A DNA stretch of 64,000 nt from an uncultured bacterium (GCA_963751005.1 CAVVSY010000004.1:761808-825807), one strand, 5' to 3'; positions 1 through 64,000 are shown, counted from the stretch's first letter. Program-made: numbers and translations. The notes: generated from the sequence alone by a model not told the origin.

Positions 1-21
1 CGGTCCCGATGATGCCGACTT

Positions 22-390
22 CTATTCCGTCCATTGGTCGTCCTCCTTCAGTCTTCGAGCAGTGCTTCGGGTGCGATCGGGAGCCTCACCGGTGCCCCGA
101 TGCGCGCCGAGCGGTCCATGGCCATCGTCAGGATCAGGTTGCGATGCCCGTCCTGCGGCGGTGGCATGGGGGGTGGACACCCCGTTCGTCAGCCGGTGGA
201 ACCAGGTCATGGTCTCCTCTCGCATCGGCCCCCAGAGCAGCCCGTCGGAGAGATCTCCCGGCGGGTAGCTGCCGATGAAGTCGACATAGCGTTGCGAGTC
301 GGGCTGGTAACCCTTCGAAGCGTACCCGGCCGGTTGTGCGATCTCGGTGGCCAGGATCACGTCGCGATGGGTGTCTTCGATGTCGATCAC
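22..390 (-). CDS. hypothetical protein; C-terminal half low-complexity, possibly frameshifted
   Basis: ORF whose ATG overlaps the stop of the upstream gene (ATGA at 387-390). N-terminal 70 aa look protein-like; no family recognised. Confidence 0.3.
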   Translation of the reverse strand: MIDIEDTHRDVILATEIAQPAGYASKGYQPDSQRYVDFIGSYPPGDLSDGLLWGPMREETMTWFHRLTNGVSTPHATAAGRASQPDPDDGHGPLGAHRGTGEAPDRTRSTARRLKEDDQWTE

Positions 391-1176
391 ACCCCGGTGC
401 CCACGATCCCGATCTCGAGGCCATAGACAGCCCCTGGCCAGACCGTGGGAAGTGCCCAGCTGATGTTCATGCTCCAGATCGTCCCGTCGTCCATCGTGAA
501 CAGGCCAAACGTGGCGTCCTTGGTCCCCATCTCGCCGAGCACCCGATCGGTGGAGCGGGCGTACACCTCGACCGGGCTCTTCCCCTCCATGAGCCAGAGG
601 GACATGTCGAGGCTGTGGGTGCCGGAGACGACCATTGGCGTCAGGTTCGACCGCTCACTCGTCTTGCGCAGCGTGGCGTCGGGGACCATCCGGTTCATGA
701 AGGCCCGGGTGACGACGCTGGTGACATCACCGATCTGACCGTCACGGAGGCGTTGCTTCACCGCCTGGAACCGGCGGCGAAACCGCTGCGTGTAGCCGAG
801 GACCGCGTCCACTCCCGCTGCTTCGATCGCGGCGAGGACCCGCGCCGAGTCGACCGGATCGGTGGCGAGGGGTTTCTCGATGAAGAGGGGCACACCGAGG
901 TCGACGGCGGCCAGGATCGGGGTGACGTGCTCGTTCTCGGCGGTGGCGACGATCACGGCGTCGATCTCGGCCCGGGCCAGCAGCTCGTCGAGATCGGTGG
1001 TTACGAAGTCTGCGTTCACGTCCTCGGCCCAGCGCACGCCCCGTGCTCTCGTCGACGTCACAAAGCCCGACCCAGCCGACGGCGGGGTGCTCCCGGGCCA
1101 GAACGGCGCGGATACGGCCGACGGTTCCGCATCCGATGATCGCCAGACCGATGCCCGTCAGGCTCATCTCCAGCCC
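387..1176 (-). pseudogene. Gfo/Idh/MocA family oxidoreductase, frameshift near 1050
   Basis: N-terminus MSLTGIGLAIIGCGTVGRIR (Rossmann GxGxxG) lies in the frame of ORF 742-2169. The remainder (EIDAVIVATAENEHV...FIEKPLATD) lies in ORF 387-1061. A one-base shift is evident at about 1045-1060. Confidence 0.6.
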
Positions 1177-2169
1177 CAGCAGACGTGCGGCGTTGCCACC
1201 GACGATCAGGTCGCGCTCGGGCCCGGTCAGGCCGGGGACACGGTCGATCAGGCCGAGGGGGTCGGTCACGCCCATGTCATAGGGATAGTCGGTCCCGAGG
1301 AGGACGTGGTCGGCGCCGTACCGGGTCACCAGGAAACGGAGCTGGTCGGGGGCGAACACCATCGTGTCGAAGTAGAACATGGCGAGGTACTCACTGGGTG
1401 GGCGGGGCAGGCCGTGACGCACGTCCTCACGGGCGTGATAGGCATGGTCGAAGCGCCCGGCATACATGGGCAGGAACCCGCCGCCGTGGGAGAAGACGAA
1501 CTTGAGGTCGGGGAATCGCTCCATGACGCCGTCGAAGATGAGCCGGCCGGCGCAGATGGTCTCCTCCAGCGGGTGGCCGATCGTGTTGATGAAGTAGTGG
1601 TCCATGAGCCGTTGCGGCTCGGTGAACCCGGTCGGGTGGAGGAAGACCATGAGCCCGAGCTGTTCGACCTCCGCCCAGAAGTCGTTGAACCGAGGGCTGG
1701 AGATCTCGACGCCCTCGATGTGCGTCGCCATCTCGATGCCCCTGAAACCGAGCTCGTTCGCACAGCGCCTCAGTTCGGAGACGGCCTGGGACGGGTGCTG
1801 CATCGGGATCGCGCCGAGGGCGAGGAAACGGTCGGGGTGATCGGCCGCGACCTTGGCCAGGTCGTCGTTGACGGTCGAGAACGCCCGAACCGAGAGGTCG
1901 ACGTCGTCGACCCAGTGGTACAGCTGATAGGGGGAGAGGCTCAGGGCCTGGACGTCGACTCCCATCTCGTCCATGGCGGCGATCCTGACGTCGATCGACT
2001 CCATGATCGGGCGGAGGATCTCCAGCTGTTTGCGGTTTACCTCACGGGTCAGCTCGTTCCCCACCTGGAGGGGGCCGCGGCCCAACCGTTCGGCCTCCGG
2101 TTTCACCAGCGCCGCGGCAGCGGCGCATTCCCGGTGGCAATGGACGTCGATCACCCTTTGCCCGCTCAA
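1177..2169 (-). CDS. amidohydrolase-2 family protein (ACMSD/LigW/LigI-like); no stop codon before the MocA start
   Basis: MSGQRVIDVHCH... HGGGFLPMY... GTDYPYD... GGNAARLLGL, characteristic of PF04909. Reads in-frame directly into the MocA start with no stop. Confidence 0.7.
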
Positions 2170-2237
2170 TCTGGCTCCGTTTCCGTGGTTGTTACATCAT
2201 GCACGATATATAGTTTGAACGGGACACGCATCTCCGG

Positions 2238-61630: not shown

Positions 61631-61634
61631 GTCG

Positions 61635-62667
61635 ATGGCAGTCGTCGAGCACAGCGAGCACAGCGAGGAGATCGTGGCCGGAGCACCCGAGCCAGGGGCG
61701 GGCACCCGGTCGCGTCGGGTGACCCTCATCGTGGCGTTGGCGGTGATCCTGCTCTTCCCTGTCATCGCCGTCCCGATCTTCGAGTCCTACGCCTACGTGA
61801 TGCAGATCGGGATGCTGATGCTGATGTGGATCGCGATGTCGTCGAGCTGGAACATCATCGGTGGCTTCGCCGGGTACATCTCGCTCGGCCATGGGGTGTT
61901 CTTCGCCATCGGCGGGTACAGCGCCGGGCTGATGCTCGCCCACTGGGGGATTTCGCCGTTCCTGTCCCTGCCGGCGGCGGGGCTCGCCGCCACGGCTGTC
62001 GGGTTCCTCGCTGGGCTGATCACCCTCCGTACCAGGGGCCCGGCGTTCATCGTGGCCACCATCGCCATGCTGTTCCTGTTCCTGCTCTGGTTCGACAACT
62101 GGGAGTTCATCGGGGCCTCGAACGGTCTCGACCTGCCGCTGATCGAGATCCCCGTCCGCTGGCTGAAGGTCCCGTTCTATTACGCCATGGCGCATCTCGG
62201 CGATCGGGGCGGTGTATCTCGCCTACCGGGTCGCCCATTCCAAGTTCGGTCTGGGGCTTCGGGCGATCAGCCAGGACGAGACCAAGGCCGAGGTCGCCGG
62301 AATAAACACGCGCTGGTACAAGGTCTGGGCGTTCGCTCTGAGCGCATTCTTCATCGGGACGTCGGGGGCCATCTACGGGTACTCCTTGACCCATCTCCGA
62401 CCCCTCACCTTCTTCGCCATCGCGGTGGCGGCGAGGATGGTGCTGATGTCGATCATCGGGGGTAGGGGGACGGTGGCCGGCCCGGTGTTGGGCGCCATAC
62501 TGATCATCGGGGTGAACGAATTCGCGGTGCGTCAGCTCGGGGAGAGCGCCCTCAACATCGTCTTCACCGGCAGCATCCTCGTCATCGCCCTGCTGTTCTT
62601 CCCCCAAGGCATCGTCGGCAGCCTGCGCAAAGCGGGCAAGCTCCCCGCGTTCCTCGACTGGGACTGA
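61635..62667 (+). CDS. branched-chain amino acid ABC permease (LivM-like), frameshift near 62200
   Basis: N-terminal half in the frame of ORF 61635-62465; C-terminal half in the frame of ORF 62212-62667. Confidence 0.65.
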
Positions 62668-62699
62668 GCTCTTCCTGACCCGTGAGGACGGAGTTCCGT

Positions 62700-64000
62700 C
62701 CCTACGCCGTTTCGTTCGCCGGGATGACCGGTACCAGGAGCCGGGAGAGACGACCCGCCCCGGTGTGCACTTTCACCTCGCCGCCGAAGATGTCCGCCGG
62801 CCGGTCCAAAGGGTCGTCGTGGAGGAACGGCCCGCACCCGGTGAGCCGGTTCTTGAAGGTGGTCAGCGACGCCTCGCCGAGGTCGCCCTCGTACTCGTAG
62901 TCGTTGCCCCTGATGCTGAGACCGAGGCGATAGCCGGCCGGGATGACGATCGACGTCGGCCAGATCTCGACGTCCAGCTCGTAGACCTCGCCGGGGGTCA
63001 GGGGCTCGATCGCTGTCGTGGGTGTGATATGGCCGATACGGGGAGCGACAACTCCGGGTCGAGATGGCGATGCGAGGCACGGAGCCAACCCTGGGCGATG
63101 GGGGTGTGCGGGTCGATCGCCCCCTGGAAGGTGACCTCGTCACCGTCGGGATCGAAGACACGGACGACGGCGAAGATGTCGGCGTCCTCGGTGGCCGAGG
63201 AGATGAACAGCTTCAGCGGCCAACGGCCCGGTGACCTCGGTCTCCGTCTCGAACGGGTCGAGGAGGAACGTGATCCCCGTCCCGGTCGGCGTCGTAGGTG
63301 ACCTCGGCCTCGTGACGTGGGCCGGGCCTTGGTCGGACAGCGAGTTCGCCGGCATCGAGGAACAGGTCGGTCCACTGGGTCTCGGGCAGTGGCCATGGCG
63401 ACGAGCTCGCTCCTCGAAATGGTCGAGATGCCGGATCTGGAGCCGACCGGTGGCCCCGGTCCCAGCCGTTGTCCTCCCCTTTCAGGTAGTGGGCGAAGAA
63501 CTCGCTTCTGGAGGGTCGACCCCGTAGTCGGTGTAGAAGTGGGTCCAGTGCTCGAGACCGTGGATCTCCAGCCACTTGCGCGAGCTGGCGGAGCGGACGA
63601 AGCCCTCGACGTTGCCCCGGAGATGGAGACCCTGACCACCCCAGTTGCCCGCGGAGAGGAGGGGGACGTCGATCATCGACCAGACCGGGCGACCGGTCGC
63701 GGTGGAACTCGTCGTCGAGTGGATGGCTGCGGATGTCGGCTGCCGAGGTCGGCCCGGTTCGCCTCGAGTTCGTCGTCCTCAGGGTGACGTCGCCGGTGAC
63801 GGGCACCCCGGTCACCTGCGAAACCGCCCCCCGATCGCCGAGCCCGTGCTGGACGGTCTTCACCTGCATGTCGTACCAGTTGGCCCAGAAGGTGGAGAGG
63901 ATCCCGCCATGGTGGGTCATGTCCCGGTAGCAGTCGGCGGCGCCCTCCCATACGCACATCGCGGCCAGGTGCTCGGGTTGTCGCGAGGCGGCGTGCCATT
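62700..64000 (-). pseudogene. CocE/NonD-family hydrolase, paralog 2, multiply frameshifted; continues beyond the window end
   Basis: C-terminal beta-sandwich (IFAVVRVFDPDGDEVTFQGAIDPHTPIAQGWLRASHRHLD; GEVYELDVEIWPTSIVIPAGYRLG; RLLVPVIP) and mid-section SAGNWGGQGLHLRGN... in different frames. Confidence 0.5.

Follow-up and report, generated by a model that had tools for sequence, protein, structure and literature searches.

Kilobase-scale clusters of one-base frame breaks in a 64-kb stretch of an uncultured Acidimicrobiia genome: probable consensus errors rather than gene decay

Across 64,000 nucleotides of DNA from an uncultured bacterium (GCA_963751005.1 CAVVSY010000004.1:761808-825807; we refer to the whole of this stretch as "the window"), genes that are perfectly intact alternate with genes whose reading frame has been broken again and again. 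Our analysis indicates that these frameshifts are very probably errors of the assembled consensus, clustered in patches of low quality, and not mutations of the organism itself; there is almost certainly no decaying island here, and the "broken" genes are almost certainly not a real biological feature. The original prediction, made from the sequence alone, had already noticed intact genes interleaved with multiply broken ones, a pattern that proved even stronger than first stated, and it had offered two explanations: either selected operons of an accessory island are genuinely decaying, or the assembly consensus is locally poor. The first is contradicted by the complete absence of in-frame stops, by selection that shows no relaxation, by the predominance of insertions (82%), by the intact state of the orthologues and by boundaries that are graded; the second is supported by the intact relatives, the lack of stops and the graded density of the breaks.

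Number and distribution of the frame breaks

After curation we counted 112 frame-breaking events (92 insertions and 20 deletions), every one of them a single base. They fall in 34 of the approximately 62 genes, while 28 genes carry none at all, and the excess of insertions is highly significant (binomial p 5e-12, computed on 91:20). The genes given originally as examples of intact ones are indeed intact, both as open reading frames (ORFs) and in frameshift-aware alignment, and every gene named as disrupted is disrupted; the mean rate was underestimated, measuring 1.75 per kb where under 1 per kb had been given.

The breaks are visible without any reference, since both a plot of G+C content at the third codon position (GC3) and a codon-usage Viterbi path contain many frame switches on one and the same strand: long single-frame stretches alternate with regions in which the coding frame changes every 50-300 nt. 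Breaks were mapped with a custom protein-to-DNA aligner that allows one-base frame changes, using ORFs from 60+ related loci, and an event was retained only if its flanks were conserved on both sides and no shift-free alignment contradicted it; the resulting list was then curated by hand. Alignment of the DNA itself to three contigs that are 94.7-97.3% identical placed 21 of the events exactly, and the counts are approximate (to within one or two) for genes whose only homologues are 50-60% identical. The conserved-flank filter also removed a set of spurious "stops" and boundary events that arose from stop-to-stop ORF queries (shadow frames and upstream extensions). Plain tblastn is misleading in this sequence, because wrong frames tend to stay open at 67% G+C (the window ranges from 64-69%), and its high-scoring segment pairs ran straight across shifts at 38-55% identity.

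The events are far from evenly spread. Counts per 1 kb gave a dispersion index of 4.95 (chi-square p ~1e-34), with 30 empty 1-kb bins against 11.3 expected, and 27 of the 60 tabulated genes were intact against 11 expected at a uniform rate, the maximum reached in 20,000 multinomial simulations being 20 (the dispersion, bin and gene-count statistics were all run on 111 events, before a hidden break at ~12284 was added). The dispersion index and the simulations thus bear out the earlier argument that a uniform error rate is very unlikely. The strictly bimodal distribution that was first proposed needs to be corrected to a series of hills with graded flanks, whose summits lie at 7.5 kb (16 per kb), 19 kb (9 per kb) and 63.5 kb (11 per kb), with 4 to 7 kb of clean sequence between them.

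The shape of these hills is informative. The first of them, hill A, rises abruptly at ~6.7 kb, declines along a transport operon from 15 per kb to 5, and continues at 1.3 per kb in an SDR gene on the opposite strand and 0.9 in the gene after that, so that the profile over 7-13 kb runs 15, 8, 7, 5, 1.3, 0.9 per kb and then 0, crossing gene, operon and strand boundaries. The edges of the hill proper (~6.6 and ~10.4 kb) match the ends of the operon to within ~200 nt, yet both hill A and hill B fade out across neighboring transcription units; hill B has its top at ~19 kb and declines over six genes, and one edge of hill D lies inside a DppF-type gene. Since these gradients cross gene, operon and strand boundaries, they fit a property of the sequence data better than they fit gene function. 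Judged by eye, error density does not obviously follow the 2-kb G+C profile.

Relatives, error signature and rival explanations

The closest relatives of the window are metagenome-assembled Acidimicrobiia genomes; a 20-kb megablast search against plasmids returned only short ABC-transporter matches and no relative. At the level of sequence comparison, the decisive evidence is provided by three near-identical metagenome contigs in which the corresponding genes are uninterrupted: L040 (95.4% DNA identity over window positions 25084-29281), L062 (97.3% over 23474-25011) and L064 (94.7% over 17697-19571). Over the 7.6 kb that they jointly cover, one-base indels set the window apart from them at 21 sites (19 insertions and 2 deletions), and at one further site there is an in-frame indel of 3 bases. 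Relative to L064, the window carries insertions at 18027, 18404, 18443, 18718, 18746, 18860, 19006, 19150, 19299 and 19380 and deletions at 19276 and 19446; the sole one-base indel relative to L062 is an insertion at 23525; and all eight gaps relative to L040 are insertions in the window (26320, 26402, 26854, 26924, 27178, 27492, 28312 and 28680). Window stretches that we classed as clean show zero indels in the same alignments.

A variable loop of the creatininase gene (18616-18631) has 3 extra bases in total relative to L064, in frame. This is the only indel with a natural look, and it seems to show genuine variation between populations.

More distant relatives agree. The divergent gene arrangement of the first 10.4 kb is kept at three syntenic loci (L022, L023 and L025; ~80% protein identity), with all genes intact. 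Comparison with orthologous loci had been suggested as a check on the original prediction, and at all six loci (these three together with L040, L062 and L064) the orthologues are intact.

Very recent pseudogenization, in which operons of an accessory metabolic island have lost their function and frameshifts are accumulating in the population, has some points in its favor: the genes affected serve dispensable functions in catabolism and transport, and many have paralogues within the window; the densest hill coincides, within resolution, with one operon; and indels in real pseudogenes also tend to avoid long homopolymers (PMC6054270). We nevertheless consider it very improbable. Once the frames were restored, no credible in-frame stop was found in the 34 disrupted genes, all candidates being shadow-frame or run-on alignments; at the codon usage found here a random substitution has a 2.55% chance of creating a stop, so that neutral decay to 112 indels, at 3-10 substitutions per indel, predicts 8.6-28 stops where 0 were observed. 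Selection on the broken genes resembles that on intact ones: codon differences from L040 divide into synonymous and nonsynonymous as 25:4 for an intact gene and as 26:4, 38:6 and 40:6 for three broken ones, with ~85% of the mismatches at codon position 3 in both kinds alike. Amino acid identity to L022 is likewise equal: the operon with its ~35 shifts reaches 75-92%, and the remaining genes of the syntenic block, most of them intact, 70-88%. The corrected proteins cover full Pfam domains, and neither insertion sequences nor gene truncations were seen. Further, the predominance of insertions runs opposite to the deletional bias of prokaryotes, a survey of >5,000 noncoding indels having found that deletions exceed insertions in all groups, prokaryotes included (PMC2817411). 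All events are of exactly one base, up to 17 of them fall in a single gene of 1.1 kb that, once corrected, is 79-82% identical to its orthologues, the orthologues are intact in all relatives (including those with 95-97% identical DNA), and the density gradients span strand and operon boundaries. It is not plausible that evolution would leave a gene with 17 frameshifts in 1.1 kb and yet with no stop and undiminished similarity.

The errors may alternatively have arisen downstream of sequencing, from a polisher or consensus step working over mixed strains (for example, by writing both alleles in series) or from patches filled with data of another type; an inserted base that is nearly always unlike its neighbors is what two alleles side by side would give, and populations with ~95% identical DNA are present in several public metagenome samples. 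Such an origin is unlikely, although it is the best placed of the alternatives. Strain differences fall ~85% at codon position 3, so serialized alleles should avoid the slot between codon positions 1 and 2, yet the 18 exactly placed insertions that lie within genes fall about equally into all three codon slots (6 : 5 : 7); mismatches are not enriched beside insertions (~0.8 per 16 flanking bases versus ~0.7 expected, in the L040 and L062 alignments); and the 20 deletions are left unexplained. The codon slots and the lack of adjacent mismatches rule out the specific case of both strain alleles written in series. Real but very recent insertions, produced in one lineage by a localized, insertion-favoring mutagenesis in kilobase-scale patches (for example, error-prone repair or synthesis adding non-templated single bases), would be so young that no substitutions or stop codons had yet accumulated; we know of no description of such clustered +1 mutagenesis in bacteria, and we rate this as slightly less probable still than pseudogenization. 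Biological recoding, by which programmed ribosomal frameshifting or transcript editing would restore the frame, can point to the fact that one-base corrections suffice to restore each gene, and to nothing more specific. With up to 17 irregularly spaced shifts per gene, both +1 and -1 events, no common sequence motif seen at the exactly placed sites and no such shifts in the orthologues, even in those with 95-97% identical DNA, its probability is close to nil.

We therefore return to consensus error, whose signature in this window is a peculiar one. Of the 19 insertions that could be placed exactly, only 3 lengthen a run of the same base (28680, 18860 and 19150), against ~48% expected for a random base, and the wider homologue-resolved set gives ~4 of 26; in 16 of the 19 the inserted base is unlike both of its neighbors, against ~52% by chance. 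A homopolymer origin is thereby ruled out as a general cause. The homopolymer error of long-read type that was cited originally does exist in the SDR gene, where GGG has become GGGG, but it lies at 11175-11178 (~13 nt from the ~11190 first given), and it does not represent the insertions in general. Dinucleotide stutter (an X inserted after XY) was also considered as a source and rejected, since it accounts for 6 of 9 sites in the comparisons with L040 and L062 but only 3 of 8 in that with L064, which is the chance level. One might speculate that a consensus built in run-length-compressed space gave rise to insertions that avoid their neighbors.

An insertion-rich, substitution-poor and sequence-independent spectrum resembles raw single-molecule noise (of the PacBio continuous long read type) at very low consensus depth. 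The window lies on a megabase-sized contig (2.08 Mb) of an uncultured Acidimicrobiia bacterium, which suggests a long-read assembly; one of its ORFs (12695-13078) is identical to database protein P0241, for which NCBI and ENA list a single contig of 2,075,136 bp. Consensus quality would then be uneven along the contig: some patches, 1 to 5 kb long, would have kept single-molecule noise (chiefly insertions, more rarely deletions) through consensus or polishing, reaching up to 1.5 errors per 100 bases, while neighboring stretches of 4 to 7 kb would have come through free of errors. Since a one-base error shifts the frame, genes in a poor patch look multiply broken and genes outside it look perfect. 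We infer low read depth or failed polishing within the patches as the cause, and indel-fragmented genes that become worse at low coverage are documented in long-read metagenome-assembled genomes (PMC8103633, PMC12007338).

Several points weigh against this account. The link of the errors to read depth or polishing is one that we infer. Substitutions relative to L040 are no more frequent in the error hills than elsewhere, though a generally poor consensus might show a rise along with the insertions. Nanopore errors are biased toward homopolymers and deletions. A spectrum in which so few insertions (3 of 19) extend a run is unusual for polished long-read assemblies, and in polished PacBio assemblies of high-GC organisms the residual errors are mainly deletions in G/C homopolymers (PMC8574707). 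Finally, both edges of hill A coincide with the ends of the operon within resolution, as operon-specific decay would also predict.

Genes of the window and an in-frame TGA

The window opens on the minus strand with a GFO/IDH/MocA oxidoreductase (51..1152) carrying three indels (insertions at ~156 and ~1029, a deletion at ~395), 88% identical in amino acids to its L022 counterpart and without stops. It is followed, also on the minus strand, by a clean stretch with 0 indels (1168..5629) that holds two Amidohydro_2 genes, a HIBADH-like gene, a GntR/FCD regulator and most of an FAA hydrolase, all with single-frame, full-length alignments to L022 or L025 at 70-82% amino acid identity. The FAA hydrolase appears as an open ORF of 294 aa (4885-5769, minus), but a deletion at ~5630 is hidden within it and its first 38 residues belong to another frame. 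An ABC ATPase on the minus strand (5844..6587; 73% identity to L022) has 0 events, even though it adjoins the densest error tract of the window.

That tract, hill A, is a NitT/TauT-type ABC operon on the plus strand (6687..10435). The operon was correctly called disrupted, but we count ~35 events (27 insertions to 8 deletions) rather than the ~12 shifts first reported: 17 in the binding protein (6687-7799), 7 in the first permease (7886-8724), 7 in the second permease (8724-9697) and 4 in the ATPase (9690-10435), the corrected products being 79%, 79%, 75% and 92% identical, respectively, to those of L022. The SDR gene that follows on the minus strand (10440..11235, ATG at 11235-11233) has the one extra base of its GGGG run, and reads CGC GGG G AT CGG where orthologues encode Arg-Gly-Ile-Gly. 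Next to it, an MR_MLE (enolase-superfamily) gene on the plus strand (11274..12419) presents an open ORF of 381 aa, although a +1 shift is hidden at ~12284: Pfam MR_MLE_C coverage is 4-182 of 219 positions in the open ORF and 4-217 of 219 when the frames are stitched, the last ~35 positions lying in the other frame.

From 12285 to 16059 the sequence is clean, and includes a peroxiredoxin-like gene (discussed below), a HIBADH gene (13107-13988), a cupin, an FAA-hydrolase-like gene and the 3' part of a CoxL-like gene for a molybdopterin dehydrogenase large subunit (15075..17364, minus). The latter has three indels (~16060, ~16585 and ~16857), and its corrected protein spans Ald_Xan_dh_C, MoCoBD_1 and MoCoBD_2. 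At one related locus (L032; Ga0326597_10002428) the CoxL-like homologue is likewise divided between two ORFs that overlap (425 and 456 aa), while another locus (L001) has a single ORF of 796 aa; behind the split there may be a frameshift, or a mistake in the public contig.

Hill B (17454..23536, plus) takes in six genes: a 2-Hacid_dh gene with 3 events, a creatininase with 5, a cupin with 4, a MocA-type gene with 3, an alpha/beta hydrolase with 3 and a Peptidase_S15/CocE-type gene with 2. It gives way to a clean stretch of two intact genes (23559..25957; no indel relative to L062 or L040) and then to hill C (25954..29308), which has 8 one-base insertions over four genes, two on the plus strand followed by Peptidase_M24 and DHDPS genes on the minus strand. 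The DppB/DppC-type permeases (33362-35295) and three minus-strand genes make up a clean stretch of 5.5 kb (32785..38326), beyond which, on the plus strand (39864..41747), lie a second creatininase with insertions at ~40119 and ~40315 and a zinc alcohol dehydrogenase with one event at ~41105. In hill D (43470..44699, minus) the errors affect only the 5' end of a DppF-type ATPase (deletions at ~43470 and ~43631), the other 1.2 kb of that gene (42242-43469) being clean, together with a DppD-type ATPase that has 5 events; the ABC_tran and oligo_HPY domains are complete once corrected. Sparser errors extend over 46817..50491, in an SBP_bac_5 gene (4 events), a luciferase-like monooxygenase (48761-49609; insertions at ~48776, ~48894 and ~49225) and a membrane protein gene (49628-50491; 3 events). 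The longest clean stretch, of 7.1 kb (52702..59839), holds a LacI regulator, an MFS transporter and others, and a gap of that length has a probability of ~4e-6 per gap at a uniform rate. The window ends in hill E (62711..64000, minus), a second Peptidase_S15/CocE-type gene that runs off the edge with 11 events (9 insertions, 2 deletions), mapped with three homologous loci.

The gene content is rich in paralogues, with two creatininases, two (or three) GFO/IDH/MocA genes and two each of the Peptidase_S15/CocE-type, Amidohydro_2, HIBADH-type, cupin and SBP_bac_5 genes, the last with Dpp-type permeases. This richness suggests that related catabolic modules are clustered here, for use on small nitrogenous or cyclic-amide compounds. 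An Rfam scan of the whole window found no RNA family. ARAGORN called an 85-nt tRNA-Pro(CGG) at 58254-58338, inside a protein-coding gene (57957-59204); the Rfam tRNA model stays below threshold there, and the call is probably a false positive.

One interruption in the window appears to be of another kind. The AhpC/TSA peroxiredoxin-like gene (~12530-13078, plus) lies in a single frame with a single in-frame TGA (12683-12685), across which the Pfam AhpC-TSA domain extends, covering positions 1-123 of 124, and the TGA aligns with the peroxidatic Cys of a Cys-containing homologue (P0273). An identical TGA occurs in two relatives that are ~80% identical (L066:3989-3991 and L067:1848-1850), with both halves of the gene conserved. 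Peroxiredoxin-like selenoproteins are a known kind of protein, and the conservation of the codon and its alignment make it probable that the TGA at 12683 encodes selenocysteine and is no part of the artefact. From 6 nt past the TGA, 20 bases are invariant, third codon positions included, and within them lies a small hairpin (GUCCC-AGUU-GGGGC, 12 nt past the UGA) whose fold z-score is not significant. Rfam gave no selenocysteine insertion sequence (SECIS) family near the TGA, and none of the selenocysteine machinery (selA, selB, selD, tRNA-Sec) was seen within the 64-kb window. Public gene callers split or truncate this gene: most of its close database homologues are gene calls of 111-127 aa that start just past the TGA, and the ORF at 12695-13078 (TTG start) is exactly one such database protein (P0241, 127 aa, starting MSQLGHLAERMREHGAEPIAIAV).

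Consequences and comparison with known systems

Taken at face value, the sequence would have ~55% of its genes annotated as pseudogenes or split ORFs. Pseudogene counts would come out too high and completeness and pathway calls too low, and an uncultured Acidimicrobiia lineage might wrongly be thought to be undergoing genome reduction. Simple ORF counting underestimates the damage, since two seemingly intact ORFs (the FAA hydrolase and MR_MLE genes) each hide a frameshift; at 67% G+C wrong frames stay open and so mask the errors. A signature that is dominated by insertions, avoids homopolymers and forms kilobase-scale hills is not what homopolymer-aware polishers are designed to target, and we regard it as a quality warning for the source assembly. 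Any correction should leave the TGA at 12683 alone: it should be neither "repaired" nor counted among the lesions.

How does the window compare with systems already described? It resembles the pseudogenes of decaying bacterial genomes (PMC6054270, PMC2817411) in having multiple frameshifts per gene and in the dispensable nature of the catabolic and transport genes concerned. It differs from them in its bias toward insertions, in its lack of nonsense mutations, larger deletions, truncations and mobile elements, in selection that is unrelaxed, and in lesions that are common to no relative.

The window also resembles gene fragmentation in long-read assemblies and long-read metagenome-assembled genomes (PMC8103633; Kastor, PMC12007338): there, too, one-base indels split conserved genes and correction restores full-length proteins, and the contig of the window is of megabase size. 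Unlike those cases, ~82% of the events here are insertions, mostly outside homopolymers, and they are piled into kilobase-scale hills of up to 1.5% rather than thinly spread. The residual indels that the ARAMIS study describes in polished PacBio assemblies (PMC8574707) are similar in that indels come with few substitutions and several may fall in one gene; in that study, >70% of the indels lay in homopolymers, whereas in the window insertions are the prevailing class, and 16 of the 19 that could be placed exactly lie outside homopolymers.

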